A DNA stretch of 64,000 bases from a virus: the IMG/VR virus record IMGVR_UViG_3300042340_000194, positions 1-64,000 of that record; one strand, written 5' to 3'. Shown here in pieces: positions 2,952 through 62,327 of the stretch. The position numbers and the translations under genes were made by a program. Position 1 is the first letter of the stretch, and each line of letters starts with the position of its first letter. The notes below the pieces were generated by a model, which was not told the origin of the DNA, did not search any database, and saw only the letters and a program-made list of their open reading frames with translations.

Positions 2952-3671
2952 ATGGCTGCCCAGAACGCTTCGACTCCTGGAGACAAGGCAGTGCAAAAGA
3001 TGGATAAGCAAGTACCTGTGGTGCAAGAAACTGTTAAGCCTGCGGTGCTATTTACTATAATTGCGCTGCATCCAACATTGTTGATGGAGATGGCGGATCC
3101 TGAGGAGGAAGGGCTTACGGATAAAACTGCATTAGTAGAAACGGGAGAGTGTTATGATGTGGTTAAAGTAGGTAATGTGGTGAAGTGCGGAGAACAAAAT
3201 GTCGTACTCGGGGGGTACGGGGGTAGCCGCGTAATCAGATCTTCAGCCTGGAGGCGGACTTTTCCAGGAGCATTACCGTTTGAGCCAGGTATTACTATAG
3301 ATTGGACTAACTTTATGTGCAGAGTGTCTCCTAATCTAACAGTAGGGGAGGTAGTACAATGGAATACAGAAGAAAGGCCAGTAAACGGCTCTTGGGAAGA
3401 GGGCGCAATTATGCGGATGGTGGATCTTTACGAAACCATAAGAGCTGCTTGGGGTGGATCTATTGGTGTAAGCTTGGTGTATCCTAGTACGATATACATG
3501 TATCCTACAAATGGTGCCGGCTTTTATGAGTTTTACAACTGGATTCGTACCAGATGGACTGGCGAACTCTGTGATGGGTCTAAAGCAGGATTCATCGGTT
3601 TGTCAATTCTGACTGGTGGTCACTTCGTGCCCGGTGCTGGGCGCACCCCTTCAGCGGAATGGGTCTACTAG
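2952..3671 (+). CDS. Peptidase M15A-like (endolysin-like) protein lacking catalytic residues
   Basis: IDWxxF..VSPNLTVGEV...IRAAWGGSIGV...YPTNG...WTG...GFIGL...W-x-Y resembles cyanobacterial M15A proteins, but SxH..D is missing and GFVHLD has become GFIGLS. Confidence 0.6.
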   Translation: MAAQNASTPGDKAVQKMDKQVPVVQETVKPAVLFTIIALHPTLLMEMADPEEEGLTDKTALVETGECYDVVKVGNVVKCGEQNVVLGGYGGSRVIRSSAWRRTFPGALPFEPGITIDWTNFMCRVSPNLTVGEVVQWNTEERPVNGSWEEGAIMRMVDLYETIRAAWGGSIGVSLVYPSTIYMYPTNGAGFYEFYNWIRTRWTGELCDGSKAGFIGLSILTGGHFVPGAGRTPSAEWVY

Positions 3672-3684
3672 AATATTCTTGATC

Positions 3685-4068
3685 TCAACTCTCTTCATGA
3701 TGGTTCCTTAGTAGCCCATCGTGGAGAGACGTTTTTTTCTCCAGGTCTTCTATCCTGTTAAACACACTCACACGGTATTCCCTATTTTCTTCTTTCATAT
3801 CTTTAAGCTCATCACCAATGCGAGTTATACTTTGATGTATTCCCTCAAAGGCTACTGCAGCGTTCTGCCGCTCTTCAATGAATGCTTCAAATAGTTTGGT
3901 GTATTTTAGCTCATTAGTTTGTCTAAAGGCTAACTCTTCTCGGCGCTCTACTGCCTTAGCCTCATTTTCTTTCTTCTTTACCTCTTCTCTACGTTTCACC
4001 CCCTCCTCTACACGTTTACCAAGCAGCAAAAAAACTCCACCGATAAGTGCTACTGCAATTTCGCCCAC
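3685..4068 (-). CDS. N-terminal TM + coiled-coil protein (holin/lysis accessory-like)
   Basis: IAVALIGGVFLLLG followed by a charged coiled coil; last gene of the late operon. Confidence 0.55.
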   Translation of the reverse strand: MGEIAVALIGGVFLLLGKRVEEGVKRREEVKKKENEAKAVERREELAFRQTNELKYTKLFEAFIEERQNAAVAFEGIHQSITRIGDELKDMKEENREYRVSVFNRIEDLEKKTSLHDGLLRNHHEES

Positions 4069-4129
4069 AGTGGTAACGCGGTGTGCTCAGGTCAAAGCAT
4101 AGCTGAGGGGGTAAAGCTGCCTTCAAGCC

Positions 4130-4990
4130 TCATTCGCGGAATAGACGCACTGGGCCGGTTGTCACAAAATTTACAGAACCTTTAATAAAATCATCAGGGT
4201 TTGTATCTAGACTCGTATCTACTAAAAGCATTGAAGTTTGATAATACACACTTCCAGGTAGATATGCTACAGTGGTGTCCTGGATATTAACAGTTTTAAC
4301 TGCTGTGCGTTTTTTTAAGTATAGTTTCGCTTGAGCTATAGCATCATTTTCTACCATTAGAGCCATCCTAAGGATAATGTCTATGTCATTTGTGTTGTTA
4401 CTGTTTTCTAAAAAATCGACTAAAAAATCAAAAGTGCCAGAGCCTGATATAGTAGCTTTAATGGAATCTCCGAATTTTTCTCCTAACGATCCTGTATCGG
4501 TGGTGTTGCTACCTAACTTAAGGCTCCATTTTTTTATGTGCCCTTGAATATTCCATAGAGTTGTCCCTGTATTAGCTGCTATGTAGCTACTATTGGCTGT
4601 AGGATATGCTAGTAGTGTTACTTCTGTGGTGATGTTGGTTAAGCTAGGATGTAATGCGGTTAACACCGATGTAGCGTTGGTTGTACCTTTTAAGCATAAA
4701 ATAGTAGCTGTGGACGGTATTCCACTTAAACTTATTCTGGTAGATATAGTATTATCTTGGGCACCCACGGCTGTAGAATGCAAAGTTATTCTGTCCAGAG
4801 TGTCTCTCCAGACAAACCCGGTCTTAGTGCCTCCAGAGTGTATAAGTATAACTTCATCTCCAGGCCAAAATGCTGTAGAGTTAATAGTAAATCGGCTATT
4901 AGCAATGTCTAGCGCACTCGGGGGGAGCACTATGGGATCTGGGTAGGATCGGGCTAGTTGAATAATACCGTCTTTGCCGATAAGTGACAT
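4130..4990 (-). CDS. Minor tail structural protein (C-terminal tail-tube-like domain)
   Basis: IKKWSL...DTGSLGE...SGSGTFDF...VNFVTTGPVRL; position in tail module. Confidence 0.6.
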   Translation of the reverse strand: MSLIGKDGIIQLARSYPDPIVLPPSALDIANSRFTINSTAFWPGDEVILIHSGGTKTGFVWRDTLDRITLHSTAVGAQDNTISTRISLSGIPSTATILCLKGTTNATSVLTALHPSLTNITTEVTLLAYPTANSSYIAANTGTTLWNIQGHIKKWSLKLGSNTTDTGSLGEKFGDSIKATISGSGTFDFLVDFLENSNNTNDIDIILRMALMVENDAIAQAKLYLKKRTAVKTVNIQDTTVAYLPGSVYYQTSMLLVDTSLDTNPDDFIKGSVNFVTTGPVRLFRE

Positions 4991-5388
4991 TAGAATGATT
5001 TAGCAGTAGGTTTACCAGATAGTTGAACTGAGAGTTTACACACTTGAGCTTCCCCATAAGTAGCTGACAATCCAATATTAGTTATAACTGCATCTGATGT
5101 TAATGATCTATTCGTGTTGATGTCCCATACAAATTTGAAGTTTGGTAGAATTTCTGGGGTATCTGCATATATAGTGTCAAGGATGTTGACTACTGTAGGA
5201 TCTTGAGGATCGTAAAATAATAAAGCTGAAGCCTTAGTATCACGTAACCCAGCAATATAGGTATTATCAAAAAGATCAATAGTAGTTGTACGCATGGCTT
5301 CTCGACTTATGTCTAAGTCGATATTTTTGACTTTGCCAACCCGCACGTTATTAAAGTATAGACCTGCGGTGGTGCTAGTAAGAATCAT
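4990..5388 (-). CDS. Minor tail protein, tail-tube-like
   Basis: VGKVKNIDLDISRE..RTTTID...YIAGLRD...VQLSG pattern; coupled to neighbouring genes. Confidence 0.6.
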   Translation of the reverse strand: MILTSTTAGLYFNNVRVGKVKNIDLDISREAMRTTTIDLFDNTYIAGLRDTKASALLFYDPQDPTVVNILDTIYADTPEILPNFKFVWDINTNRSLTSDAVITNIGLSATYGEAQVCKLSVQLSGKPTAKSF

Positions 5389-5813
5389 GCGGCGAAACTG
5401 GCCCTAAGCCCCCCAAGTGTACCGTCGAAGTCAAATAGGAAGGTGTCCCCGGAGACTAGATTTTGGGCTACGCCGTAATCCCACCAGCAGATGACTTTGT
5501 TGCCTACTGAAGAGTTGTATAGGACAGGATATTGGAAAGTATTGACGGTGCCAGTTGGGGAGAATGTAAGATCGTTGATCAGGGCTTTATAGACACCAGA
5601 ACTCTGTGTCGAGGAGGCTACTGTAAGGGTAAACCCTCCTAAAGTGTAGCCTCCCCCGGCAGTTATCTGGGTGATCCCCCCGAGGTCGGTTATTGTAGCA
5701 ACAGGGAGCGTGTTGGAGAGGGCCAGTTTTAGCGTATTAGAGCCGATGTTATGAATACCATTGTGAAGATCGGCTATGTAGGAATTGAAGAAATACTGGG
5801 GAGCGGTTGTCAT
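5385..5813 (-). CDS. Virion structural protein (tail/fibre-associated)
   Basis: TLKLALSN...GGGYTLGG...VLYN...WWDYG...SGDTF pattern common in tail modules. Confidence 0.6.
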   Translation of the reverse strand: MTTAPQYFFNSYIADLHNGIHNIGSNTLKLALSNTLPVATITDLGGITQITAGGGYTLGGFTLTVASSTQSSGVYKALINDLTFSPTGTVNTFQYPVLYNSSVGNKVICWWDYGVAQNLVSGDTFLFDFDGTLGGLRASFAA

Positions 5814-5872: not shown

Positions 5873-7003
5873 CTATATATTAACTGTTATAGTAATAGTC
5901 CCACTATTTAGACTGTAATAAGGAGATTGTTGGGTAATTGTGGAAGCGTAGAATTGTAGTGTACCGGTTATACCTGAAGCCCCAAATACTATATTATATG
6001 TAGAACTATTTATAGAGTTTTGGCTACCTGCTAGGCCCAAGGGTGATGTACTTATTGATTGTGCGGAAGCGGTGTTATTGACACTAAGTAAATTAACAGT
6101 GTTGGCTGATCCGCATATAGGGTAAGGACCTACAAGATAGAAAGCACCAAATATTAAATTGAGTGTGTTTGTCCATATTATAGTATTAGCCCCTGCAGAA
6201 TTACCAGTACCGAAATAATAATCAAATCGTTGAGAATTTATAGTATTAGCCGCAATTGGATTGTTGTCATTAAAAGCACTTTCATTTATATTTCCGGCTA
6301 CTTCTTGCCCTACTGGCTGCCAGGATACCAAAGGGGCATCACACACTAATCTGGTGTAGATACAATTTCTTAAGTTAGGTGTCCCTCCGGTATTCATTGC
6401 CGATCCAGTATTGTTTAATTGTATAGCTCTTGTGTTACCGCTACTGTTAGGCACTGGTACATACCTTAAATTAGGATTATTAGACGTAAACACCATTGTG
6501 TTCGGTGTGGGATTATCTACAAATACGCCTTCATGGGATATTCTAGCTAGTGCAAGGGAGCGCGAAGTAAGTAATGCGGGTGTATTTAATAAAGCTGTGC
6601 TGCTGTTGTTTATTTGGTAAAATTCTCCTTCTAATTCTACTGATATGCTACCTACTCCAGCTATTAAATTATTTAATTTAGGTTCTGCTAAAAAACGCCA
6701 ACCTGTTGATTTAGGTCCAACTATCCGCCCTGCAAAATCCGTAGATTTAATGCCAGCTACGATCTCGGGGGGCAGTGCCAGGGGAAAGAACCCAGAGTAT
6801 GAAGAGTCCCAGGCGGAGAAGATAGACAGTATTTTGGCGGCTGATATGTTTGTGTAGTTTAATGTTAAAACAGCAGCGTTAGGTTTAGACGAGTTTAGGC
6901 GAGGCGAGAAGGTAGAATTAAGGAATTTCGGGGCAGTGACGTTGTAAACGGCTGGAGTAAAGCTGTAACTGGATGGTTTGTAAGCCGGGTAGAGGATAGC
7001 CAT
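5873..7003 (-). CDS. Tail protein: distal-tail (gpM/Dit-like) N-domain + beta-rich C-domain
   Basis: Likely start MAILYP at 7003; LTLNYTNIS...WRFLAEP domain shared with 7009-8274. Confidence 0.65.
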   Translation of the reverse strand: MAILYPAYKPSSYSFTPAVYNVTAPKFLNSTFSPRLNSSKPNAAVLTLNYTNISAAKILSIFSAWDSSYSGFFPLALPPEIVAGIKSTDFAGRIVGPKSTGWRFLAEPKLNNLIAGVGSISVELEGEFYQINNSSTALLNTPALLTSRSLALARISHEGVFVDNPTPNTMVFTSNNPNLRYVPVPNSSGNTRAIQLNNTGSAMNTGGTPNLRNCIYTRLVCDAPLVSWQPVGQEVAGNINESAFNDNNPIAANTINSQRFDYYFGTGNSAGANTIIWTNTLNLIFGAFYLVGPYPICGSANTVNLLSVNNTASAQSISTSPLGLAGSQNSINSSTYNIVFGASGITGTLQFYASTITQQSPYYSLNSGTITITVNI

Positions 7004-7008: not shown

Positions 7009-8274
7009 TTATGTGGAGCCTCTCCGCAAGCGAGAGTAGCCACTCCATGTTGTTAGGACTGTATAGGAGGCATCAGCGAACTCCCATCGACCTCTAGATC
7101 TAGCTAAATCAAATGTGTCCGGGGTACTGAAGTTAATACCCATACCATAGTTAGTGTTTCCACTTGTTATGGGCTGTCCTTGTATCTTACTATATAGGTA
7201 AAATACGTCCGCACTTCCGCCTATACCGACATTTTGATAATATGATTCTACATAAACATCTATGTTAGAATACCAAGGCCCTAAGTAATACTGGGCGCTG
7301 TACTTTAGGTACGGAGAGCCGTCTAATTGTATGCCCCCTAACCCATAAGTTACTGGCACTCCCAATGAGGTGCGTAGTGGTAACCATCCGCTAACAACGT
7401 CGAATGTGGTCGGAGGGCCGCCGCCGCCAGTTCCCCCGTAACCACTTCTTTGATACTGTGTTCCAACCCATCTAACATAGGTGTAATCTGACATATCTGG
7501 AGACTGCCCTTCGTAATCGCAATCAGAGAAAGTAGACAAAGCTTCATCGTTACTAATAGGATTTATAGGTATAAAGGGAAAGTTTCCTCCTATCTCACTG
7601 GCCACAACTACAGGCTGTGAAACTAATATGACGTTAAGATCGCCATATCCTTTAATCTTACCGACCCATTTAGGGACTTCAGCAAAAAACCATTGTGAAT
7701 TTTTACCTCCAGTTAACATATATACAGCTAGCTGTTGGTTTACTCCAGTTAACGTAGCTATAGGAATACGCAGCGATTTATATGTACCATATAAAGCATC
7801 CCATAGAGCTAAAATTTGTTCAGCTACTGTGTCCGATAAATTTGTATAGTCAAGAGTTAGCGTAGCGTTAGTATTTGAATCTGACCATAACTGTACTTCT
7901 ACCTCACCTGACTGCGTTGGGTGTTCAGTTACAGGGTATTTAGGTGGTTTGAACTGTACTTGTGTGGGAATTGCAGAAGGGTAGAGTAAAGTCCCGGACA
8001 AGGTCCCCCCGAGTACGACTCTATCTATAACAAGGTTACGAGAAGTATGTCTTTGGGTTTTACTTGTAAATCGTCCTATGTGTGCGATTCTTTCTAGAGT
8101 AAGCACTCTGGAGCTTAGTGGGTACGCTCTTGAGACTATTAACCCATCAGAGGAATTTCTTGATATTATAAGATTTCTGCTATTTAGAGAGCTTTCGTTA
8201 GTGTAAGTAAGCGATAGTCCAGTTCTACCTATCAGTAGATTACGACTTACAAGATCAGCGGGAGTACCTGGCAT
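7009..8274 (-). CDS. Tail protein with SRxLxxxR repeats and a distal-tail-like domain
   Basis: LTLDYTNLS...WFFAEVP domain; repeats SRNLLIGR, SRNLIISR, SRVLTLER, SRNLVIDR. Confidence 0.65.
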   Translation of the reverse strand: MPGTPADLVSRNLLIGRTGLSLTYTNESSLNSRNLIISRNSSDGLIVSRAYPLSSRVLTLERIAHIGRFTSKTQRHTSRNLVIDRVVLGGTLSGTLLYPSAIPTQVQFKPPKYPVTEHPTQSGEVEVQLWSDSNTNATLTLDYTNLSDTVAEQILALWDALYGTYKSLRIPIATLTGVNQQLAVYMLTGGKNSQWFFAEVPKWVGKIKGYGDLNVILVSQPVVVASEIGGNFPFIPINPISNDEALSTFSDCDYEGQSPDMSDYTYVRWVGTQYQRSGYGGTGGGGPPTTFDVVSGWLPLRTSLGVPVTYGLGGIQLDGSPYLKYSAQYYLGPWYSNIDVYVESYYQNVGIGGSADVFYLYSKIQGQPITSGNTNYGMGINFSTPDTFDLARSRGRWEFADASYTVLTTWSGYSRLRRGST

Positions 8275-8277: not shown

Positions 8278-11200
8278 CTAACCTCTTTGTATGATCCAAT
8301 TAGTGTCAGTTACATAAGTGGTCCAGTTTTTGGTTATTAAAGAGTATCCATCATTATCAGTAGGATGATGTGTAGCTTTGACATCAATATCTCTATTGCT
8401 ATTTATAGATACCTCATCGACTTTGTAAGTACGCACTTGAGAGGTGATTGTTTTCTTCATAAAAATAATTCCAGCAGGGCTCGCTTTACCGTAAGTCCCT
8501 ACGGTAATAGTTCCTTCCGACAAGGCTGAGCTTAATCCATCCCAGTATGTAACTGTGTGGTTACCTGCAGGTAGAAGGTCTGGACGAGTAGTGACAAGAG
8601 TACCATCATTCAAAACAATACCATTAGCGAACGCATCATAATATGTATAATCAAGAGCTACACGAATATAAGCTCCTGGGTATAAGCCTCCAAGTATCCC
8701 TGAAGGACGGGTACTGAACTGCACAGAATGGGTGATCAGCCGGCGAAGCCGTACAATATAGCAAAGCGCATCGACACATTGTTCAAAATTGGTACAATAT
8801 TCGGATAGATCGAAAACCTCTATGGGGTCAGATTCTGGCCGGTCGGCCTCCCGCAATCGTACCTCTCGCTCAACTGGAAATACACCATTTCTCGTGTATG
8901 ACGCCCGCGAACGCTCTTCTCGCCATTTACCTGATGCTTGGATAGGTTGTCTATCTTCTTCTGGTATAAATGTTAGCGAAAACGAGTTGGGTAATATGTT
9001 GCCTGCAGTGTAAAGCCCGGATATTGGAGGTTTTCCGGTCCCGTCCTCGGGGAAGACCACCGCCGGCTCCATCGCTAACCTACCGTTTTTCTCTGTAATA
9101 TCTACTAACATAGTCCCGCCAATGTCAGCTAGCCATTGGCGTATATTAACTTTTTCTGTTAGTACACCATCAAAAAAGTATCGCCTCTTCTTTAGCCATA
9201 AGCCTGTATTGTAAAATGATTCTAGATCTAGCTGTTTATCGCTTACAGATTGACCAAGTCCTAAACGTGAGCTACGACATAGGTCATAACCTATGTCTGG
9301 TAGCAAATTACTGGGACCTGGACTATTGCTATGTAAAACTCGCCTTACCATACGTCCCCCGGTAACCCTAACCGAGAATTGGGCAAACTGGCTCCATTCA
9401 GTCGCTGCACGGAATACACCACCGACTATGGCTAAAAAGTCATATTTAGGTGTTGTTTCATTGGCGGTTATGACGTTAACATAGGTTATTTCATGTTCTG
9501 GACCCTGAGCAGCGGTAGTCTGCACCTCTTCGTACACAAAAGCTTCAGCTACCTTACCCCAACAATCAAGCATAGAGTCTCTACCTGCAGTGTCTGTCCA
9601 CTTATACCCTAAATCTTCGTTAGGTTCCCAAGAATGAAGTCTAAATGTATCGGATGTATTTTCTACTACTGTTCCAGACCATGTTATTAAATAACCTCCT
9701 AAGTTAAGAGTATTAGATGAAGATATGTTACCGTCTAATACAATAAAGGGGGCTACAGCCAGCCCATTGCGTATTTCCCAGCCGGTCAGTGGCTCAAGCT
9801 CAATTTGTGGTGTAGCTGCTACTGGCTGCTCTACACGTATGTAATTATATATTGCTTGCTGGCTTTGACTACGAATACCAATAGACGCCGGCAGCACAAC
9901 ACGAGTACCATCTTCAGTGACTATACTCATCCTCCAAAATGAGTATCTCTCTGCGGTGTCATTTAACTGACCTGATTGGAAGTTTTGAGTATCTATGTCT
10001 TTGTCTGGATCATGCAGAGTTTCATGGTATTTGTAGCCGGCTATATAGTTGACCTCATCCAATCTTTTAGCATCTTTGAAATTACAAAGACCTGAAGCTC
10101 TAATGCCTACTGCAGATTTTATTCCTATTTCAAAGCATTTTACTCTCTGGTTTAGCTGAATGTTTGCTATAGCGCAGCGGAATATCTGTGCAGTGCTCGT
10201 AGCGGTATCATAGTCAGTGCCGTTGGGATAACTAGCTAGGTTCTGCTGTCTAGTATTTGTGGCTTTTGCCCACTGTGGAGGATATATTATTTTGTCAGTA
10301 TCATCATTGTCTACTCTAGACAAAGGTATAATAGTAATAATTCCGCTACGGACTACTGTAAAGGTGTAGTATACAGATTGCCCCCCTCTAACCGGGTAGT
10401 TGTCCACTTCGCTACTAAACACTTTGTCTGATGGTGATATTTCCGTAACAACAGCTAGACAAGAACCTACCTTATATAGCTCACCTATGGATAGCGCATT
10501 AGCAGCACTCATTTGACGCGATGCTATTGTATTAGCTATATCTGCGCATTTTGCAATTCCAGGTTCGGCCTCAGATGGATTATTTGTGTTAGAAGCCTCA
10601 AATTTTATCTGTGTAGTCGCTGCAGATGTTTTCGACAACATATACACAAATGTATCTCCAACGTTTAGCACGGAGCTGCCAGTGCTTGTAGATATAATCC
10701 CACTGCGCCCTGACCACCAGTATCTAGATTTCCACATATCAGCTAGTGCTACGGCATCGTCATTTACACGAACCTCATATTTTTTCTTACTTTCTCTATT
10801 TTTAGTCCATAGATTTATTGTTGGACGAATACGAGGATTTATTCTCAACCCTAAGTTGTTAGGTATTATGTTGTAGACTCCAAATGTGGTTTGAGTAGAT
10901 GGCTTGGCCGTAAAGCAAGAATCTTGCCTCCATGCGTTCCCTTCAGATCTAATTGAAAATACATCGGCTCCTCCAGTATTTTCGGCGTTACCTATATCAG
11001 TGCTTGGGGATCTACCAGCTAAATAATCAGTGCTTCTTAATCTACCTCCATTACCAGCGTAGTATAGCGTTAGCCTCCCTGCAGCTTGGGCGGCTGCGGT
11101 GTCTAAATCATAAGTGCCTAAAGTGTTATCCCCTACGGCGAAACTCTTTGGATCTATACAGCAAATCCTGCCTTCCCCGAGCATGAAAATAGCTTTTAAT

Positions 11201-11673
11201 ATCTGGCTGCCACTGGAGCTGAGCATCTGGCTCCAGAGTAATTGCATGTTGACCCTCACTCCTCCATAGCGACCTTCCGGCCTCGGGGGTGAAGCCTGCG
11301 CCAGCATATAAAGCTGATTGGCGTATATTACTGGGGTAGTAGTACCAAGAATTGCTGGCTGTTGTACGCTATCGAAACCTCTTCTAGGGGCAAATTTCTG
11401 GTTTCTTGTGATGTTTACAGGATCTGGCGATTGTGTTTTAATGCCCCCATTTTTACCTCCACCTTGTTTTGGCTTAAAAAAGCTTGCAGCTATGTTAAAT
11501 CCTATGCTCAGTCCAGCAGATACTATTGCTAAAGTCTCAAGACCTGCTTGCGGTACACCAGGGTCTATTTTAACTTTGCTATCAATTTCTTGCTGAAACC
11601 ATTCCATTTGAGCTGGAGTAAGTCCCAGCATTTCTGCTAGGTACTCGTCGCTAGGTAAAGGTTTGTACCCCAT
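8278..11673 (-). CDS. Tail tip / central fibre (gpJ-like) protein
   Basis: 1131 aa after TMP and gpL/gpK-like genes; GFDSVQQPAILGTTTPVIY, YFFDGV, PGAYIRV. Confidence 0.8.
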   Translation of the reverse strand: MGYKPLPSDEYLAEMLGLTPAQMEWFQQEIDSKVKIDPGVPQAGLETLAIVSAGLSIGFNIAASFFKPKQGGGKNGGIKTQSPDPVNITRNQKFAPRRGFDSVQQPAILGTTTPVIYANQLYMLAQASPPRPEGRYGGVRVNMQLLWSQMLSSSGSQILKAIFMLGEGRICCIDPKSFAVGDNTLGTYDLDTAAAQAAGRLTLYYAGNGGRLRSTDYLAGRSPSTDIGNAENTGGADVFSIRSEGNAWRQDSCFTAKPSTQTTFGVYNIIPNNLGLRINPRIRPTINLWTKNRESKKKYEVRVNDDAVALADMWKSRYWWSGRSGIISTSTGSSVLNVGDTFVYMLSKTSAATTQIKFEASNTNNPSEAEPGIAKCADIANTIASRQMSAANALSIGELYKVGSCLAVVTEISPSDKVFSSEVDNYPVRGGQSVYYTFTVVRSGIITIIPLSRVDNDDTDKIIYPPQWAKATNTRQQNLASYPNGTDYDTATSTAQIFRCAIANIQLNQRVKCFEIGIKSAVGIRASGLCNFKDAKRLDEVNYIAGYKYHETLHDPDKDIDTQNFQSGQLNDTAERYSFWRMSIVTEDGTRVVLPASIGIRSQSQQAIYNYIRVEQPVAATPQIELEPLTGWEIRNGLAVAPFIVLDGNISSSNTLNLGGYLITWSGTVVENTSDTFRLHSWEPNEDLGYKWTDTAGRDSMLDCWGKVAEAFVYEEVQTTAAQGPEHEITYVNVITANETTPKYDFLAIVGGVFRAATEWSQFAQFSVRVTGGRMVRRVLHSNSPGPSNLLPDIGYDLCRSSRLGLGQSVSDKQLDLESFYNTGLWLKKRRYFFDGVLTEKVNIRQWLADIGGTMLVDITEKNGRLAMEPAVVFPEDGTGKPPISGLYTAGNILPNSFSLTFIPEEDRQPIQASGKWREERSRASYTRNGVFPVEREVRLREADRPESDPIEVFDLSEYCTNFEQCVDALCYIVRLRRLITHSVQFSTRPSGILGGLYPGAYIRVALDYTYYDAFANGIVLNDGTLVTTRPDLLPAGNHTVTYWDGLSSALSEGTITVGTYGKASPAGIIFMKKTITSQVRTYKVDEVSINSNRDIDVKATHHPTDNDGYSLITKNWTTYVTDTNWIIQRG

Positions 11674-12068
11674 TACCGCAAATTATAGTAAAGCGGACTT
11701 TTTAACTGTAGTAGAGGTACTGTCGTGAGCCCTTGGCGGTGATGTACGGCTAGCAATAACTTATCAGGAACTACAACCCCAATGCCGAAAGACACTGGAG
11801 TTAGTAATGGGACTAGAGACCATAGCTCTTCATCTACAGCGGCTTTAATCGCAATGAGCTGGAACTCTTCGTATAGATCAGTCCAGCGGCGTTCTCGGGC
11901 CAAATTCTCCCATCGGGGGTCGATCTCGGGGGGATCCCTCCCGATCTCCTCCATGATGATCTGGGCCATCCTCAGGCAGCAACAGGCTTCACCGTTGCGG
12001 GGGTCGGCACCAATGCGGTGAGGTAGTCCTAGCCAGGGGTGCCAGCCGGTGTAACTCGGAGAAGTCAT
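11673..12068 (-). CDS. Tail assembly protein, NlpC/P60-like (gpK-like)
   Basis: WLGLPHRIGADP..GEACCCL N-terminus; position before the J-like gene. Confidence 0.6.
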   Translation of the reverse strand: MTSPSYTGWHPWLGLPHRIGADPRNGEACCCLRMAQIIMEEIGRDPPEIDPRWENLARERRWTDLYEEFQLIAIKAAVDEELWSLVPLLTPVSFGIGVVVPDKLLLAVHHRQGLTTVPLLQLKSPLYYNLR

Positions 12069-12575: not shown

Positions 12576-15500
12576 TAGGTTAGACCTAGGGCTCTGCGGA
12601 CATTGGGGTCGAGCTGCATACCACTATAGGCAAGGTCGCGCCCCTGGTTGGCGGCTTCTTGCACGCCCTGCCGGAACTCCTTCACGGTGACATACTCGAC
12701 ACCATTGATTGGCTGCGGTTCGTAGCGGATGTCTATGGCACCTCCGGGCAGGGACATCGGCCTCGGGGGAGCGGGGGGAGCCAGTGGGGTCAGGGCCGCA
12801 CGGGTGTTGCTGAACATCCCAGCGGTGGCGTCGGCAGGCAGGATCGAGCCGGGGCCCGAGGGGCTGAATAGTTCAGGGCCCCGTTCACCGACGATGTAGG
12901 AACTGGAGGGGAGGACGGGGCCGCCAGAAGCGCGGAAGCCTCCGAAGGTCTTGCCGAAGATGCCCAGCCCGCCGCCACCGAGCAGCCCCCCGAACCCGCC
13001 AAAAACACCACCCAGGCCCGCGAGGACATTCTGGGTGCCACCTTTGCCGATCTGGGAAAGGCCACCGAAGATAGTAGCCGCACCGGTCGCGAGAGTAACC
13101 ATCCCCCCGAGTACGGTCTGCAGACCAGTTGCTGCTTGGGTGGTAGCGGGGGCGAAGTCTTTGATAGTGTCGCCCAGGCCGGTTAGATCCGTATTGAGGG
13201 TTGTGATTGTAGAGCCTGCGCTCGTGGGGGCGAAGGCGTCGAAATAGCCGGCCTCGGGGGAGAAGCCTTTAGGGTCTAGGCCACCGAAGGTGGAGTTTGG
13301 TCCGGGGACAATGTTGTTTGTAGGATTTGCTGCAATCGCCAAAAGTGCTGCGGTATTCTCACGGGTAGCTATAGTGTTGTCTACTGTAGGGTTGGAAACA
13401 TCAGCACCAAAGAACTTAGCAAACATTTTGGTCATATTGTCTTCCATCGGCTTTAAGGACATATCCATAAACTGCTCCATGACACGCTCAGTCAGAGATT
13501 GACTAAAGGAGCTGGTAGCTTCTTTTATATCACCTCCAGATATAATAGATTTGAATACACTACGGAACCCTCCGCTAAATTCTTTGGCTAGCTCAGTACC
13601 TTTAGCCCAAGCCTCATTTTGTTTTTTCAGGGCTTTATCAAGAATAGCCAGTTCTAATGCAGCGGCGCGGGTAGCTGCAGCAAAAGCTGCAATCTCTTTC
13701 TCTACTTGACTATCAGACATACCTGGATTATTTTTCTTATAGTCCAAGCGATAGGTGGCTATGGATTCTTCTGCGCTATTAAGCCGTTGCCCTTGAAGAT
13801 CGTCTGGGTTTATACGAAGCCCTCTGAGACGGCCAGCTATAGAGATCTTTGCTTTTTCTATGTTATACCCAATATCGCGCACATCAGCTTGCACTTTTTC
13901 TATGCGAGTAGTTTCAGACGTAACAGCAAGAATTTCTTGACGTGTCTTTAAGTTAGTTCTTAGTATTTTTTCTTGCTCCGCGTAATAAGTATTTGTCTTT
14001 TTAATAAGTTCAGCTTTTTGTGTTTCAGTTAACACACCTCCTTCTGCAGTACGTTTTTCGTTTATAGATAAAAGTGTGTCTTTTCTGACTTTTTCCAGAG
14101 CTACTAGTTTCTGAGCATTATCAATAGTTAAGTCTAGCTCTTTAGGGTTATAGACTTGACTAGCAGCTTTTTTAATATTTTCTAGTGCAATCTTAGCATT
14201 ATTGAGTTCTATTGTGTACTGTTCAGTGCTTTGTATAGGCAGTGCATTTTTTAGGATTGCCTCAAACGCATCTTTTGTTTCAGCTTTGATTAACTGTGCT
14301 TTAAGGTCTTCTATTTTACCCATTTGAGCTTCCAAGCTTCTAGTGATCTTCTCCTGCTCGGAAGCTTGAGTATTCTGTATTTTAGCTAAATCTGGTATTA
14401 CCGGGGCGGTAGGGGGTGCAAGGTTTTGCTTTGCCGAGGGAGTGTCTCTGACTTTCCCATCAGTCCCTACCCACGCCTGGCCGTTCCAAGTGACGGGCTT
14501 GCCATTGAGGGTACTTTTTTCGCCAGGAGCCCTCCCACTGACCATGGTTGGCCCCATGCTTGTCCCTGTGGCTGTAGAACTGGCTAATCCATGTAAGAAT
14601 TGATTCCCAGTAGTAAGGGATTGAGCGACATAACCCCCACCTCCATCTGTCCACCTCGGGGCACTAGCAGGCATTGGGATCAATGTCCCTGCTGGTAACG
14701 ATATGTCAATAGCATTACGACTTTGTCCGGGTCTACGATTTCTTGTTGAATCGTGAGCACCTTGTTCAACGGCTAACCGCCTCCTTAGTTCCCGTTGATC
14801 AGTAAGATTTAGTATGTTTTTATTACCGGGCTCTAGTTTAGCAAGATTCGGTAGTTCCATGTACTCTACCCCTGACTTTTGCAGGGATAAGACTATGGCT
14901 AGTGCTTCCTCAATTACTTTCTGCTTGTTAGGTCCGCGTATATCAAGATGGGGTCCAGAAGAATTACCGGAAGATCCAACGCGGAAGCCAGAACTGACAC
15001 CTGGGGCGGTCATTGGACTAGCCCCACCACCTGTAGAATTTCCGGTTTCTCTGGCTTTCTGCTCCAACGCAGCCTGCTTCACTCTGTAATCTGAGACTTG
15101 CTTCTCGTAATCTCCGATTTTTAGACGTAAAGCTGCGATGTTCTTCTCCGTCTCATAACGATAATCAGCTATAGATTTCTCCATGCTATTGATTTCGATC
15201 TGCATCTGCCGGCGATTATCTTCAATCGTTTTCTCTCCCCTCATCTTAGTTGCAAGATATTCGTTAATACCTTGAGTTACACTGCGGCGCACCCCTTCTT
15301 GGCCTTCTAAGAGTTTGGTGTTAAGCCGCTCCGCAGCTTTAATTCTAATGTCACCCTCTAAGCTGATAATATTTGCAGTCTTTTGTAACGCCTGTTGACG
15401 CAGTTGGAACATATTATTCTCGTGTGCGCGTTCAAGGTCGCGTAATTGTTTACTAATATCAATTTTCTTTTGGCTAAGGATTTGGATGTTAGACTCTTGC

Positions 15501-19356: not shown

Positions 19357-19382
19357 CAAAGGAAAACCCCCGAGGTCGGGGG
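19357..19382 (-). terminator. Intrinsic terminator after the major tail gene
   Basis: Minus strand CCCCCG-ACCT-CGGGGG-TTTTCCTTT. Confidence 0.65.
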
Positions 19383-42075: not shown

Positions 42076-42077
42076 GG

Positions 42078-42359: not shown

Positions 42360-42418
42360 GGGATCAAGCGGGCTCGGGGGTCACAGGGGCTGTCTCAGTA
42401 TGAGTCTCATGGGACTCC

Positions 42419-51014: not shown

Positions 51015-51390
51015 GGGGAAGTTCGTCGAGGGGTTCAATAAGGTTGCTGCTAAGCAACGAGGCGCGGTAGCGATTAACCGCCGCGTGGAGGATGTAGGCG
51101 GGCTGGATGTGAAGCAGCTTCGCCAGGTCTCGTATGAACTCGTCGTTCTCGGGGGAGAGTGACGTGTTGAATCGCTGAGTCAGCTTGGTCGATGTTGGTC
51201 GGTAGCTGTCTGCTCGCTCCTGGCTGATGGCTCCTTGTGCGACGGCTGTGGTGAGCCGTTGGTGTACGGCCTGGCGGCTGATGTCTAACCTCCTCCCGAC
51301 TTCTGCGTAATTGCAGACACCGTATTTGGTTAGAACCTCTTCGCAGGTATCAAGGATTGATTGAAGAGAAGTCTTCGAGACGTAAGTCAT
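51007..51390 (-). CDS. HTH DNA-binding protein
   Basis: NYAEVGRRLDISRQAVHQRL; possible C-terminal ribbon-helix-helix. Confidence 0.7.
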   Translation of the reverse strand: MTYVSKTSLQSILDTCEEVLTKYGVCNYAEVGRRLDISRQAVHQRLTTAVAQGAISQERADSYRPTSTKLTQRFNTSLSPENDEFIRDLAKLLHIQPAYILHAAVNRYRASLLSSNLIEPLDELPHV

Positions 51391-52612: not shown

Positions 52613-53629
52613 TCAGCAGACTTCGCTCCAGTCGATAGAAATCGCCGGGTGGAGTTCTCCGTCTACAAGCAGTTGCGCAAAGTCTTTGGCCGAGTGATCC
52701 AAGACCATTTCCTGGATAAACTCGGACAGCTTGCGGCGTTGCGCTTTGGTAGGGACGGTGGTAGGAGAGGGGGGCGTGGCTACGGGCTCGGGGGTACGGG
52801 CCCAGGGGGCACATCCTCTATTCACCACCAGGCTTACTTGTGGAACTACTTCAACCTTCGCTGCAGCGGCTGCCACCACTACTTCTTTCTCCTCTTCTGC
52901 TCTCGCGGCACGTTGCTCGGCGGCTTCGGTTTTCTTACGCTCCGCGTCCAGCGCGGTAGCGGCCTCTGCCTCCGCTTCTTCTTTAGCCTTGGCTGCGGCC
53001 TTATCAGCTATATCCTGCTCCCGTTTAACACGGGCAGCTTCTGCAGCATCCTTGCGCTCTTGTTCCCTTCGGGCCGCCGCTTCTTCAGTGTCCAAAGCGG
53101 CTTGGAGGGTTTGCTCCAACGCGGCGGTAGCAATGACTAGCTCCGCATCCGCCTTAGGGGTAAACTCTTCAAAGGTTTTATGGTCAATCCCCTTCAGGAT
53201 GTCTAGGTATTCCTGGATCTGTGCGGATCCAACTCCTACTGGAGCTTTCCCCATGTCGATGATGACCTGAATATTGTTTTCGTGCTCTGCTATACGAGCA
53301 TCTTCTTCATCTTTGATACTCTTGAGGATTGTTTCATGAGGCGTTATGAGCGATGTAACACGCGCTTCTAGTTTTTTAGAGAATGTGTTGACATCTTGAA
53401 TATATGTTTGAGCTGCTTCATTCTGCGCTTTGCGAGTCTTATCAACCGAAGCTCTTACTTTACGCAGCTTGGCTACATAACTACGCGCTCTCTTATTTAC
53501 ATCGGGATTTTTATAGTCACCAAAATCGGCTATTGCTTCTTTTTCCGCTATTTTAATGTCTGAAGTGACACGGTCAAACGGTGTAAATACTTCAGTATCC
53601 AGAATTGGGGCAGTGGTAGCGAGAGTCAT
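52613..53629 (-). CDS. Coiled-coil hypothetical protein
   Basis: 338 aa, E/A/K-rich helical. Confidence 0.7.
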   Translation of the reverse strand: MTLATTAPILDTEVFTPFDRVTSDIKIAEKEAIADFGDYKNPDVNKRARSYVAKLRKVRASVDKTRKAQNEAAQTYIQDVNTFSKKLEARVTSLITPHETILKSIKDEEDARIAEHENNIQVIIDMGKAPVGVGSAQIQEYLDILKGIDHKTFEEFTPKADAELVIATAALEQTLQAALDTEEAAARREQERKDAAEAARVKREQDIADKAAAKAKEEAEAEAATALDAERKKTEAAEQRAARAEEEKEVVVAAAAAKVEVVPQVSLVVNRGCAPWARTPEPVATPPSPTTVPTKAQRRKLSEFIQEMVLDHSAKDFAQLLVDGELHPAISIDWSEVC

Positions 53630-54337: not shown

Positions 54338-54697
54338 TCAATACCGCAAAGCGGCGATCTCTTCAGGGGTTTTCTTGAGGAGTTTGGCCAGCTCGTTTTC
54401 TGATTTTGGTAGCAGCATTCGTAGGCGATTGCGCTCCGTGAGGCGCTCGGAGATTAGCTTTTTTGCTTCGCCTCTAGTAGTCAGGGCTGATTCGGCTTCA
54501 GCCTCTTCGAAGATAGCTAGTGTGCTGTCTTTTGTAATAAGCTCGGAGGGAGTAATTAACAATTCGGGACCTACATCACCTACATTGAGCAAGGACTCGC
54601 TGGAAATGAAACACTCACGAGGATCGTTATTGGATTGGGCGGGCTCGGGGGGAGTGGTGGGGCCGCCCATGCTGCGACTGAAGGAAGGTGAAGACAT
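54338..54697 (-). CDS. Hypothetical protein
   Basis: 119-aa ORF with a C-terminal coiled coil. Confidence 0.55.
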   Translation of the reverse strand: MSSPSFSRSMGGPTTPPEPAQSNNDPRECFISSESLLNVGDVGPELLITPSELITKDSTLAIFEEAEAESALTTRGEAKKLISERLTERNRLRMLLPKSENELAKLLKKTPEEIAALRY

Positions 54698-55854: not shown

Positions 55855-56961
55855 TCAAACCAAAGCAAGGCACGCTTCGCGAGCACGCTCGATGCGCTGG
55901 GAGCCGGCTCCGCCGTAGAGAGCCTCCAGGCGGCCACGGGCCCGATCGAGAGGGTCCTTCGCCCGCCCGGTGTCCCAAGTGGTGTACTGGGTGATGGCGT
56001 TGTAGAGCCCCCAAAGGGAACCACGCATGCCAGGGAAGTCGAAGCCGATCCCAGTGTCGCCATAGGCGTGGCTGCGGATTGCATCCACCTCGTCGTTGAG
56101 ATCTAGCAGTGTGCGCTTGCGCATTGTCGAACGGTCGGTGCTGGTGCGGTCACGGATGGGGACTGCGAGGCGATCCGCGAAGGCAGCGCTCAATACCTGT
56201 GCGGCATGTTCAGTGGTCACCTGGACATCCGCCATGGCGCGGAAGCCCTCGATTGTGGTGTGGAATTGCTGGATCTCCGCGTCTATGATACCGGGAAGAC
56301 GACGGATAAATTCCGTGATCCCACGGCTGTGCCTGTGCTTAAGCGCATCGCCTTTCTTAGTGGCTTGGTTGAACACCGTGCCGTCGAAGTATGATAGTTG
56401 ATTGGCGCAGAACAGTCGTTTATCTGTGAAGTAAGCGCGGAGAGAGCTACCCTTGTGGCCGTTACTTAGATGGAGGTAGCGGCGGACTACGTCGCCGGGG
56501 AGGACATCATTCTGAGCGTTGATTGTAGCCGTGATGTAGACACGCTCGCCTCCGTTGATGGAGAGGATGTCCTCTATTTGGGCGCGGCCTTCTAGAGCAT
56601 CGAAGATGCCTCTAAGTTCGTGGTTCTGGACAGGGGTATAGCCAGGGCCGTGGATGGCCAGGAGCCCACCTGTGTCGGAGCGGACGATGGATTTATAGGC
56701 TGCGGTTGGGTGATATGCACCACCGGGGACTCCAGTGGTAAAGCCCACATCGGTGGTGTCTGCAGTCCAGGTGAGTCCAGCCTGGGAGAAGGCGGCCTCG
56801 GGGGTGGCGTCGGAGGAGACAAGGATGCCGCCAGCTACCTCGCTGAGGGGGTTGACGGCGTAACCGGCGGCGCGGTAGTTGCCGTAGACCATGAGACCCT
56901 TGCCGTCACGAGCAAAGGCTTGATCGACAGTGGTGCTGGTCTGGTTGAAGGAGTTCTGCAT
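55855..56961 (-). CDS. DUF932 (LGT_TIGR03299-like) protein
   Basis: AGLTW...VRSDTG...YTPVQN...GGERVY...LSNGH.G...R.FCANQL...HRHS...SLWGLYNAITQY. Confidence 0.85.
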   Translation of the reverse strand: MQNSFNQTSTTVDQAFARDGKGLMVYGNYRAAGYAVNPLSEVAGGILVSSDATPEAAFSQAGLTWTADTTDVGFTTGVPGGAYHPTAAYKSIVRSDTGGLLAIHGPGYTPVQNHELRGIFDALEGRAQIEDILSINGGERVYITATINAQNDVLPGDVVRRYLHLSNGHKGSSLRAYFTDKRLFCANQLSYFDGTVFNQATKKGDALKHRHSRGITEFIRRLPGIIDAEIQQFHTTIEGFRAMADVQVTTEHAAQVLSAAFADRLAVPIRDRTSTDRSTMRKRTLLDLNDEVDAIRSHAYGDTGIGFDFPGMRGSLWGLYNAITQYTTWDTGRAKDPLDRARGRLEALYGGAGSQRIERAREACLALV

Positions 56962-57110: not shown

Positions 57111-57719
57111 CTAGGAGGGTTCCCTTATGGCGTCCAGATGGGCAACGAGGTAGCTCTCGATGGCGCGGAGGTGGTCAAAGATCTCGTTGCGGGATTTTCG
57201 AGCAGCTTCGAAGCTCCCGTCCGGTAGGTCTTGGTAATTGCGCCCGTGGAAGTCAATCTTTAGGAACAGGGCCGACGCTGCATTCTGAGCATCAAGAGCC
57301 TCGGTATAATCTTTTACCAGTGATTCACGGGTGTTGCCGTTTATATTGATCCTAGGGAGGATAAGCTCGGGGGGCTGTGGGGTGGAAGGTTGGGTCATTG
57401 GAGGAGGGGTTGGATTAGACTGAAGATCGAGTTGTAATTGAGTGGTCTTAGCTAGCCGCCGCAGTTCTATAGCGGTAGCTAGCCCGGCATTGGTGAGGCG
57501 CAGGTTGAAGTAAGGAGGGTCAGTGTGTTGGTGCTCGACAATTACGATTAGATGTAATCGTTGGAGAACGTAGGCAGTTTTTCTAAAGCGTTGAGAGTTT
57601 ATGGCTATAGCTGTAGCCCCTGCGTTTAGGAGGTTTAGGAGTAGCCGCTGTTGAGCTATAGAGAGCTTAAAGCTATAGCTGCCGTCAGGTTTGAGTTTAA
57701 GGGCTTTCGGGGATTTCAT
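57111..57719 (-). CDS. Hypothetical two-domain protein
   Basis: wHTH-like N-half (LRLTNAG), Pro linker, C-half ININGN...FHGRNYQ. Confidence 0.55.
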   Translation of the reverse strand: MKSPKALKLKPDGSYSFKLSIAQQRLLLNLLNAGATAIAINSQRFRKTAYVLQRLHLIVIVEHQHTDPPYFNLRLTNAGLATAIELRRLAKTTQLQLDLQSNPTPPPMTQPSTPQPPELILPRININGNTRESLVKDYTEALDAQNAASALFLKIDFHGRNYQDLPDGSFEAARKSRNEIFDHLRAIESYLVAHLDAIREPS

Positions 57720-59784: not shown

Positions 59785-60107
59785 TGGGCGGGCTCGGGGG
59801 ATGGTTTTAATGCTGTAAATACTGGTAACTTCAAGTCCTCAACATTGCCGTTAGCTTTTATCTCTTCTTTAAGATAAGAGAGGAAGAAGCGCTCAGGGTT
59901 GCATTCGGCTGAGCTAGCGCATAAATGCCAGCGTATAAACAGGATCTGATAGATTACATGGTTCCTGCATTGGTCTAAAGTCCATCCTTGACGGATTTTG
60001 GACATTAGATCATTAGTGGCATCACTATTGACAAGATGCCATTCAACACTCTCTACAGCGTTGCTGATCTCTTGCCGAACCTTCTCATCCGCTATTTGAT
60101 GACTCAT
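59781..60107 (-). CDS. Hypothetical protein
   Basis: ATGA-coupled ORF. Confidence 0.5.
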   Translation of the reverse strand: MSHQIADEKVRQEISNAVESVEWHLVNSDATNDLMSKIRQGWTLDQCRNHVIYQILFIRWHLCASSAECNPERFFLSYLKEEIKANGNVEDLKLPVFTALKPSPEPAQ

Positions 60108-60860: not shown

Positions 60861-60878
60861 GATGGTTAGTGGAAGAGG

Positions 60879-61160
60879 TTACTCTTGTAGAGGTGTGATG
60901 AACCTTATCTTATCAACATGGACGGCTTCTACCTTACCGTCTACATATTCAACGATGGCCACGGGTTGTAACCCCGGCCCATTTTCGTATTCCTCGTGGT
61001 CGGTAGAGAAGCAGTGGAACTCTGCTCGTTTGTCAAACGGGGCGCTCCAGGCACCATTTACCCATAACTTACAAGTTACGATGCAGGTACGGGTGGTCTT
61101 CTGTTTGCGTAAAAAGCGGGAGAGGAAGGACATGGGGAGAACGGTTAGGATGGGTGGCAT
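60879..61160 (-). CDS. Conserved phage hypothetical protein
   Basis: FHCFSTDHEEYENGPG..PVAIVE..DG.V.....I.F. Confidence 0.65.
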   Translation of the reverse strand: MPPILTVLPMSFLSRFLRKQKTTRTCIVTCKLWVNGAWSAPFDKRAEFHCFSTDHEEYENGPGLQPVAIVEYVDGKVEAVHVDKIRFITPLQE

Positions 61161-61232
61161 GGAATACCGCAGATGCGGCGAAAGCTAGGCCCATAGCCAC
61201 GCCGAAGGCGTATTGGGAGAGATGGGCTAGTT

Positions 61233-61496
61233 TCATGGAGTTTCCGCTAGCCCTGCTTGCTCGACCACCCAGTCTTTTAGATCCAGAGTGGTTGACCCCT
61301 CATTAGTAGCTGCTCCCCAGGCGGAACAAATCCATCTGTGTTCCTGTGCTGGTATGTAATTAGCAAGAGCTTTTTCATTAGCAAGCGGATCTCTGCTCAT
61401 GGCATCTACGGCGATCTTCATGATAGGCCGTAGCCTATTTAGAACCAATCGCTTAGCTACTTGCTCTTCAGAAAGTGGTGGGGTTGACATGTTCAT
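61233..61496 (-). CDS. Hypothetical protein
   Basis: Likely start MNMSTPP, downstream of the hairpin cluster. Confidence 0.5.
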   Translation of the reverse strand: MNMSTPPLSEEQVAKRLVLNRLRPIMKIAVDAMSRDPLANEKALANYIPAQEHRWICSAWGAATNEGSTTLDLKDWVVEQAGLAETP

Positions 61497-61628
61497 CGGA
61501 ATCAGGATTGGGGTAGTAGGAAAGAAAATCGTCAAGCCAGTCCCCCGGAGGGGACTCGTTATCATCCCCCTCCGGGGGGTCGGGTGGGTCCATGGGAGGA
61601 TCCATGGACCGGACAGAGCGGGGATACA

Positions 61629-62327
61629 TCAGAGATCCCCGGAGTTATCGCCACGGGCGATAGCCGCTGCTTTTTTGCGACCAGCCCCGTGGGCCCAGAA
61701 CGCGACAATAACTGTGCGAGCTGGACGAGCACAGATAGGGCCCTGCTTTCCTCCGCAGTTAGAGCAGGTAATATACTCTGCTGTGTTAGCGGGACATTGG
61801 ATGACGGGGATCCCGTCGATCTTGAAGTGGGTGGGGGATTCAGGAGGAACCACTAGGACAGTTGGGAGGCCCTGCCGGAAGGAGGAGGCGGCGTCCTCGG
61901 GGGTCTCCGTGGAGATGTTTATGCAGAATCCCCGGCTGATTGCTTCTCGAATTACGAGGAGATTGGCGGGAGATAGGACGTGATGCGTGTATGTCCAGGC
62001 TTTGAGATGGGCAGCGGCAGCGGCCAGGCCAAGGACAAGCCGGGGGATGAGCTGGCCGGTATTGTGCCAGAGATCGCCAGCCACATTGTGGCGGAAATAG
62101 GCGCCGGGGCGTAACTCCCGGAGCTTGGCGAATAGGGATTCTGGGGAGATCCCGGTAGTGGGGACTTTTGACCAGTGGAACAGGACCATGCCGTAGGAGG
62201 CATAGCAGCCGTGGCCCTTGAGCGGGCAGGTTGTGGGACAGGAGGACTCTTCGGTTAGAGTCAAAGAGATCGGCCCGGTTTTGGCATTGCCGGAGCGGGC
62301 GATGAAGTGGGACAGAGGTGCAGTCAT
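61629..62327 (-). CDS. Cys-rich Gp88/DUF7227-like protein (radical-SAM-like Cys cluster)
   Basis: SGNAKTGPI...SCPTTCP....CYA...RHNVAGD...WTYTH...CPA...TC.NC...C...F.AHG. Confidence 0.65.
   Translation of the reverse strand: MTAPLSHFIARSGNAKTGPISLTLTEESSCPTTCPLKGHGCYASYGMVLFHWSKVPTTGISPESLFAKLRELRPGAYFRHNVAGDLWHNTGQLIPRLVLGLAAAAAHLKAWTYTHHVLSPANLLVIREAISRGFCINISTETPEDAASSFRQGLPTVLVVPPESPTHFKIDGIPVIQCPANTAEYITCSNCGGKQGPICARPARTVIVAFWAHGAGRKKAAAIARGDNSGDL

Follow-up and report, generated by a model that had tools for sequence, protein, structure and literature searches.

A strand-biased bipartite word shared by a family of uncultured lake phages and tied to an origin-like region: a candidate priming signal

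The template words known for primases are 3–8 bases long. That of T7 gp4 is 5′-GTC-3′ within GGGTC, TGGTC or GTGTC, whose 3′ part stays uncopied and next to which the primer starts with a purine; gp4 also has an acidic polymerase-binding tail. At the oriV of RSF1010, iterons are combined with the single-strand initiation signals ssiA and ssiB, read by the RepB′ primase, and the alpha protein of phage P4 unites primase, helicase and origin-binding domains. Repressors, too, can use asymmetric words, as in cluster A mycobacteriophages, where tens of 13-base stoperators lie across the genome. The primase-polymerases (PrimPols) read template words, 5′-TTTGGTTA-3′ and 5′-GTG-3′ for NrS-1 and 5′-GTG-3′ for pRN1 (ORF904), and start just 5′ of them (PMC8718748). 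Other words mark nicks: in phage tf the 9-base TACTRTGMC occurs 14 times, on one strand regardless of convergent transcription units, and is nicked each time, and consensus nick words are found as well in the phiKMV-like phages (CGACNNNNNCCTACTCCGG) and in T5 (PMC3517423). Here we describe a word of the form CRNNCTCGGGG(G) in the virus record IMGVR_UViG_3300042340_000194 of IMG/VR, a 75,601 bp genome rated 100% complete, of which bases 1–64000 were analyzed as one stretch ("the window"); features beyond it are numbered on the genome or on locus L015, where L015:10959-13718 equals genome 70959-73718. The motif is real: a cis-acting signal in the DNA, under strong selection, shared by a whole phage family and tied to an origin-like region.

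A sequence-only reading of the window had listed 40 positions of an octamer, CTCGGGGG, and all of these coordinates and strands proved exact (31 on + and 9 on −; 36 and 11 in the whole genome). Its over-representation is stronger than that reading stated, the mean in dinucleotide shuffles of the window being 2.3 and the maximum 8. The reading missed the CR-NN prefix, the replication-origin link and the family-wide sharing of the motif. When all 67 CTCGGGG cores of the genome are aligned, the base at −4 is C in 65 and the base at −3 is G in 57 and A in nine, two free positions (NN) separating this CR from CTCGGGG; CTCGGGG is followed by a G as eighth base in 47 of the 67, and the next two are mostly purines. 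The octamer is part of this longer bipartite word, C-R-N-N-CTCGGGG(G), of which CGGCCTCGGGGG gives one motif-bearing example. As CRNNCTCGGGG it occurs 64 times in the genome (48+/16−) and 42+/14− in the window, only three cores lacking the CR prefix, and its motif family supplies by far the most over-represented 7- to 10-mers in the genome.

Coding constraints do not produce this excess. Shuffling synonymous codons within genes gives 5.7 and 0.7 copies on the two strands, part of which comes from the intergenic DNA left unshuffled, and permuting codons gives 3.7 and 0.6, against 48 and 16 observed, an enrichment of 10- to 70-fold. The copies also fall in all three reading frames and point both with and against the genes, much as the sequence-only reading had described, and together these results rule out a coding artefact, including the Pro-rich linkers once named as a possible cause. 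Nearly all copies (61 of 64) lie inside open reading frames (ORFs). A suggested placement near gene ends holds weakly, in that the outer 30% of gene length contains 44% of the copies (p = 0.018), and is not significant in a Kolmogorov–Smirnov test. Two further candidates were rejected: a hairpin or structured element, the folding energy of 81-base windows being that of GC-matched controls (p = 0.80), and broad GC-rich islands, mean GC being raised only within ~10 bases of the word.

The sites are under purifying selection. Among close relatives (~96.5% identical), none of 1206 specified motif positions is mismatched, compared with 3.8% of flanking positions (P = 2e-19), and this conservation, along with the codon-shuffle null, backs the earlier suggestion of a cis-acting DNA signal. 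The signature persists at far greater distance in G001, a complete and collinear 71.7 kb relative that is still alignable over 30 kb at ~72% identity and that carries 50 forward and 14 reverse copies (1/0 for a reversed-pattern control). There, 26 of the 32 alignable sites recur at the identical place and orientation while the NN positions vary; the same nine positions are kept in 7% of random windows and 15% of GC-rich windows (P = 3e-16 against the motif sites). Where G001 has lost a site, it differs by substitutions and not by gaps, by which a mobile mini-insertion was rejected.

Beyond G001, a search with the phage's primase-helicase recovered 70 IMG/VR loci at 39–99% identity, in most of which the word is enriched and co-oriented with the primase-helicase gene (e.g., 19:0, 17:0, 23:2), and the motif is the top enriched 7-mer in the IMG/VR relatives. 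Complete genomes of the family hold 43–97 copies (64, 97, 96, 43 and 52). In the orientation of the primase gene, the forward and reverse counts are 78 and 19 in G130, 72 and 24 in G131, 40 and 3 in G132, 47 and 5 in G133, and 60 and 13 (73 copies) in the 86% complete G134, with reversed-pattern controls of 0–2. Compared gene by gene, G130, G132 and G133 belong to the same phage family as the present genome, with ~40–56% identity in portal, terminase, polymerase, primase-helicase, exonuclease, sigma factor and DUF932. The last block of the word varies with lineage: this genome and G001 use GGGG almost exclusively, and in a distant clade the block is relaxed to GG[G/T]G, GTGG and GGGT being used there as well. 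Such lineage-differing specificity would suit a reader that co-evolves with the phage.

The orientation of the motif goes with the genome strand and not with the direction of genes. When five genomes are pooled, genes on the + strand contain 58 forward and 16 reverse copies (78% forward) and those on the − strand 189 and 42 (82%). Whichever way the genes are oriented, G also exceeds C on the motif strand, third codon positions included and motifs masked, and overall T exceeds A; genome-wide asymmetry of this kind between single strands is usually ascribed to replication. Reverse copies occur only from the 3′ end of the primase gene rightward through the late genes to ~37 kb, in a stretch of lower G>C skew, and the early-gene region at 37.5–73 kb has none. 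They make up 25% of copies here (7–25% across the five genomes), are equally conserved, and in some cases lie ~100 bases from a forward copy. The forward copies of this genome and of G001 are more evenly spaced than chance (coefficient of variation 0.62–0.71 vs 0.97, P ≤ 0.005). As a separate observation on base composition, the G-rich strand lies opposite most genes in the window, G001, G130, G132 and G133, third codon positions included, so that most genes are C-rich on their coding strand and would run head-on to the direction of replication that we infer below.

Reverse copies reappear at one point past the window, where the earlier statement that all copies beyond 37.5 kb are on + no longer holds, true as it is inside the window. 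At genome 73428-73664 (L015:13428-13664), within the 3′-terminal part of the primase-helicase gene, lie at least five boxes TGGTTGCAAAAT in alternating orientation that occur nowhere else in the genome, and two reverse motif copies, at 73496 and 73598, each sit 9–10 bases past a box in a 102-base repeat unit. In the relatives, the homologous regions are laid out alike but use other boxes (GGTTTGTGTC in G001, AGCAATGGACA in G130, TGTCCAAAAC in G133 and TTGTCCGAAC in G132), reverse motif copies again touching one of them or lying close by, and in many distant loci it is at this very point that reverse copies begin, all upstream copies being forward. The motif is thus found in five lineages at what, judging by its iteron architecture, is a putative replication origin. 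Since different boxes occupy the same place in relatives, origin and initiator specificity appear to co-evolve, and the pairing of lineage-variable iterons with an invariant word suggests two readers, a fast-evolving origin binder and a conserved enzyme part.

The candidate reader is the protein encoded across this region. The primase-helicase gene (genome 70959-73718, +, outside the window) starts a replication block on the + strand that continues with a Dda/RecD-like helicase, DNA polymerase A (50..2014, +) and a cyAbrB-like regulator. Its 919-aa product, conserved in all motif-bearing genomes, comprises a PrimPol domain (E 8e-13), a CHC2 DnaG-type zinc ribbon (27.7 bits, cut-off 24.9) and an AAA_25 (RecA/DnaB-like) helicase. 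The part that follows the helicase (residues 621-919, L015:12819-13715) consists of a conserved winged-helix-like domain and then an acidic tail. The former, at about residues 720–800, is modelled as three helices and a beta hairpin (predicted local distance difference test score 63–81), and every one of its best PDB matches is a winged helix, that of Orc1/Cdc6 on origin DNA among them, at weak Foldseek E values of 3e-3 to 5e-2; a PDB sequence search with the whole protein gave no hit. The C-terminal tail of ~120 residues is acidic, poorly conserved and predicted to be disordered, and ends in a conserved D-W motif. The DNA of the iteron region is the coding sequence of this disordered tail. 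Against cultured phages, the primase-helicase has a single weak match, in S-LBS1, a phage without the motif.

We tentatively favor the idea, to which we give a little short of an even chance, that CRNNCTCGGGG(G) is a phage-specific replication signal, a single-stranded start site for the phage's own primase. The primase as reader, the direction of replication and the start point of the primer are all putative, being drawn from sequence. In such a scheme, the winged helix would bind the lineage-specific inverted iterons, which lie in the coding DNA of the protein's disordered tail (73.43–73.66 kb), and the two reverse copies abutting them would prime, on the − strand, a rightward leading strand. 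The helicase, for which we assume the 5′→3′ polarity of other RecA/DnaB-type ring helicases, would track along the + strand, on which the ~48 forward copies, about one per 1.5 kb, would be start points of lagging or complementary strands. Read 3′→5′, the template would be GGGG and then CTC-NN-RC, giving a purine-started primer 5′-GAG-NN-YG, while the G run would be recognised but not copied. The conserved reverse copies of the late region might allow leading strands to restart where late transcription meets them head-on, or might belong to a second direction of fork movement. Priming would give a single account of how the origin copies are oriented, why forward copies prevail genome-wide and which sign the skew has. 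As a word of 9–10 specified bases is too rare by chance, the genome would have to carry planted, conserved copies.

Several considerations weigh against priming. With its 9–10 specified bases, the word would be unusually long for a primase, and we know of no primase word for which a genome-wide strand bias and conserved sites have been described. In a purely unidirectional model the reverse quarter of the copies is superfluous, and the scheme as it stands leaves unexplained both the reverse copies of the late region and the clustering of sites in some relatives: copies in G132 and G133 are clustered, with gaps of up to ~8 kb, and those of G130 look randomly spaced. The origin copies point as a rightward leading strand requires, whereas the motif strand would be the lagging template under the putative fork direction. 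All motif-bearing genomes form one family with some 15 core genes, among them exonuclease, DUF932 and sigma factor, and since these genes are shared throughout, co-occurrence cannot single out the primase as reader. Finally, the data consist entirely of assembled contigs (Logan) from lake metagenomes, and the host comparison below covers candidate genomes, five named and 121 sampled cyanobacteria, rather than the true host.

Among these candidates, the motif shows no enrichment. Vulcanococcus limneticus has 233 copies vs 221 for the reversed control and Synechococcus UW140 has 39 vs 66; in Prochlorococcus, Pseudanabaena and Trichodesmium the motif is almost absent. None of the 121 sampled Cyanobiaceae genomes differs from its reversed control, the maximum being ~0.02 copies per kb, as compared with 0.57–0.85 per kb in the phage (0.57 for the same 12-mer). 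The cultured Synechococcus phages S-CBS4 and S-LBS1 (1/0 cores each) are not enriched either. A host-wide signal is accordingly disfavored, and of the two places where the sequence-only reading proposed to look, host and related phages, the motif is shared by an uncultured phage family and not enriched in the sampled candidate hosts.

The strongest competitor of priming, unlikely in our estimate though far from negligible, holds that a phage nickase introduces site-specific nicks into one strand at the motif, in the manner of T5, tf and phiKMV. Nicks are dispensable in T5, which is hard to square with the strong selection on the motif sites. Nevertheless, the one-strand nick word of tf, which is of similar length, offers a precedent that counts against priming (PMC3517423). 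The word described here is likewise asymmetric and long, stands 90–93% on one strand in G132 and G133, and takes its orientation independently of gene direction. Restriction to one strand is nearly reached in those two genomes (40/3 and 47/5) but not in this one (48+/16−), G001 (50/14) or G130 (78/19), and 64 sites, 25% of them on the other strand, are far denser than in the nicked genomes described. No HNH, GIY-YIG, HUH or other nickase-like domain was recognised in the ORF scans, the sole nuclease being a recombination-type exonuclease, and the conserved placement beside the origin iterons would go unexplained. The two ideas may coincide if the nicks are unsealed primer junctions; of the options put forward from the sequence alone, a priming site fits best, with nicking also possible. 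It is quite unlikely, by comparison, that the word binds another phage protein, be it a replisome accessory factor, a polar fork barrier, a nucleoid-type or stoperator-like regulator, cyAbrB or a sigma factor. The family core does include a sigma-70 factor, DUF932 and the exonuclease, sites in distant relatives are densest in the early-gene region, and stoperators provide a parallel for asymmetric repressor sites in such numbers. A cyAbrB-like regulator is present in four of the five genomes, yet G130 lacks it and has 97 sites; moreover, a binding protein would leave unaccounted for the co-orientation with G>C skew, and orientation is unrelated to the direction of transcription, with nearly all sites within coding sequence.

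Two more of the earlier suggestions fare less well. A Chi-like signal, which would switch a RecBCD/AddAB-type nuclease of host or phage to recombination and protect permuted linear or rolling-circle DNA from one direction, is very unlikely. It would suit a G-rich word with ~75–93% of copies on the G-rich strand at about one per 1–1.5 kb, and marine Prochlorococcus and Synechococcus, both picocyanobacteria, carry recBCD, which makes the reading worth testing (PMC5101192). No Gam-like inhibitor was recognised in the genome, as might suit such a signal. The Chi/KOPS-like option is disfavored, however, as a host-type signal, for there is no enrichment in 123 picocyanobacterial genomes (the 121 Cyanobiaceae, Vulcanococcus and Synechococcus UW140), nor do S-CBS4 and S-LBS1 have the motif. 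Furthermore, Chi words are contiguous and of 5–8 bases, not bipartite and of 11, and copies built into the origin-like region would find no explanation. Sequence-specific DNA modification, whether methylation or a hypermodified base, is no more than a remote prospect. The CCCCGAG face of the word resembles MmeI/BREX-type words, with A second-to-last, type IIL and BREX recognition sequences share its form, and the phage has an unusual set of ThyX, a second thymidylate-synthase/dNMP-kinase-like protein and MazG. Yet no methyltransferase or base-modifying transferase was recognised in Pfam and/or PHROGs scans of the ~50 larger ORFs, being a target would not explain the strength of the enrichment, the conserved positions or the placement at the origin, and phages normally avoid rather than accumulate the targets of defence systems.

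The copies within the window are as follows, with conservation taken from the alignment to G001. On the + strand, those kept in G001 are CGCCCTCGGGG at 2109..2119 (intergenic), 21034..21044 and 32351..32361; CGCACTCGGGG at 4913..4923; CGGCCTCGGGG at 11278..11288, 12758..12768 (with different NN), 27248..27258 and 39408..39418 (between the portal and terminase genes); CGTGCTCGGGG at 21469..21479 and 50129..50139; CGAACTCGGGG at 24901..24911; CGGGCTCGGGG at 27791..27801; CAGGCTCGGGG at 29361..29371; CGTACTCGGGG at 33156..33166; and CGTCCTCGGGG at 37520..37530 and 43930..43940. On the − strand, the kept copies are CGTCCTCGGGG at 856..866, inside the DNA polymerase A gene, CATGCTCGGGG at 11175..11185, CGTACTCGGGG at 13105..13115 and CGACCTCGGGG at 19368..19378. 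The other + copies are CGTACTCGGGG at 3203..3213; CGATCTCGGGG at 6760..6770 and 11921..11931; CGTCCTCGGGG at 9042..9052, 25244..25254 and 61892..61902; CGGCCTCGGGG at 13249..13259, 19264..19274, 30912..30922, 41107..41117, 49164..49174 and 56793..56803; CAGGCTCGGGG at 16883..16893, 36112..36122 and 43151..43161; CGGGCTCGGGG at 18104..18114, 34218..34228, 42369..42379 (intergenic), 47120..47130, 52783..52793, 54640..54650 and 59789..59799; CGCGCTCGGGG at 30564..30574 and 35745..35755; CGCCCTCGGGG at 37895..37905; and CGTTCTCGGGG at 51144..51154. The other − copies are CGACCTCGGGG at 5678..5688 and 29015..29025; CGTACTCGGGG at 8007..8017 and at 37113..37123, the latter being the final − copy ahead of the all-+ stretch; CGCACTCGGGG at 17041..17051 and 35514..35524; CGAACTCGGGG at 21238..21248; CACCCTCGGGG at 24728..24738; CAAGCTCGGGG at 32612..32622; and CGCTCTCGGGG at 36685..36695. 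The three sites without the CR prefix, all on +, are the CTCGGGG cores at 14655..14661 and 32003..32009 and the octamer at 57366..57373, which was in the sequence-only reading's list.

The genome itself is that of an uncultured lake phage with cyanobacteria as its probable host group. All sequencing runs in which the sequence occurs are lake-water metagenomes, with no RNA data set listed among them, and the portal protein shares 35% identity with its counterpart in the Synechococcus siphovirus S-CBS4; a megablast of 20 kb against cultured phages found no match, and the cyAbrB gene, tried as a pointer to the host, had no relative in the genome collection. The contigs of relatives begin at differing points of the same circular map, from which we presume this genome to be circularly permuted. 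The − strand carries the majority of the genes, among them TerS, TerL, portal, the structural genes and a long early-gene block. Other phage genes encode a sigma-70 family factor (L015:7019-7915, −), which has canonical regions 2 and 4 and is kept throughout the phage family, ThyX, MazG and the exonuclease. The nucleotide-metabolism set consists of ThyX (L015:8204-8824), a second protein that matches both thymidylate-synthase and dNMP-kinase phage families (window 49527-50300) and MazG (window 42419-42985), all on −; since this combination is found in phages with modified pyrimidines, the DNA of this phage may carry modified bases. In the early-gene region, contigs of related phages from other lakes show replacements or deletions at window 41676-41686, 44442-44541, 45584-45922 and 52421-52586, which are hot spots of between-strain variation in gene content.

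Among the relatives, a palindrome, CGAGCTCG, is over-represented in distant members (e.g., L035-L038, L066 and L088), with 12–19 copies per ~20 kb. It yields back-to-back motif copies on both strands, for example CACCGAGCTCGGGG, and is present in G134 at G134:C1:26138-26151 and 38509-38522; this genome has none. In G133, the variant CGAGCTCGGTG is the most frequent site. An apparent replacement signal in L051, 'GTTAGTAC', was rejected as a 72-base tandem repeat within a gene: nine tandem ~72-base units at L051:15107-15693, probably in a repeat-containing tail or fibre protein, mimic a strand-biased motif in k-mer ranking. The IMG/VR contigs L080 and L072 contain G or C runs, with 107 overlapping GGGGGGG and 16 CCCCCCC 7-mers, which are probably assembly artefacts.

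Returning to the motif as a priming signal, sequence-specific primases are known, but their words are too short for genomes to need adapting, whereas an apparently abundant family of lake phages has here shaped its coding sequence around ~45–100 fixed copies of a long word. No published description emerged, as literature searches on the word and on primase motifs with a strand bias returned nothing relevant. If the word is indeed a primase signal, it provides a readable map of origin, direction and fragment starts in uncultured viruses, a simple metagenome marker for the phage family, and a primase of unusually long specificity as a potential tool and a model for template reading. A bolder proposal, conceivable though doubtful, is a private "priming code", whereby a PrimPol-helicase would start synthesis only at its 11-base word, needing conserved copies at the origin and, every 1–1.5 kb, on the strand that the helicase tracks, while DNA of the host, in which the word is too sparse to be of use, would hardly be primed; the nick words of tf, phiKMV and T5 might be the same thing, unsealed primer start points. 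If the sites are nicked instead, they would constitute the densest and best-conserved such system known, and one that links nicks to an origin.

Set beside known systems, the motif shares with Chi and KOPS that it is G-rich, frequent and skewed along the G-rich strand. Those signals are properties of host chromosomes, however, and the present word is bipartite, longer and not enriched in candidate hosts. Stoperators are likewise spread as tens of asymmetric sites over a phage genome, but they are intergenic and oriented with transcription, whereas the motif lies within genes and ignores the direction of transcription. The nick words of tf, the phiKMV-like phages and T5 resemble it in being asymmetric, 7–19 bases long, over-represented and largely on one strand regardless of transcription units (PMC3517423). 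They differ in number and placement: 3–14 major sites, all on one strand and with no reported link to an origin, in contrast to 64 sites with copies inside the origin-like region.

The primases of T7 gp4, NrS-1 and pRN1 are fused to a helicase, as in the phage protein, and use a zinc ribbon or helper domain to read a word in the single-stranded template, beginning synthesis beside its uncopied 3′ part. The GTG of NrS-1 and pRN1 is contained in the GGTG and GTGG variants of the distant clade, and the acidic tail of T7 gp4 recalls that of the primase-helicase. Unlike those words, the one described here has its specified bases in two blocks and is longer, and both the activity of the primase and its specificity for the word are putative. 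P4 alpha offers the same union of primase, helicase and DNA-binding domain in a single protein. RSF1010 oriV, finally, has initiator iterons with adjoining primase start signals, as does the origin-like region, but its ssi signals are ~40-base hairpins confined to the origin, whereas the phage word is short, unstructured and repeated ~60 times throughout the genome, with both origin copies pointing the same way.

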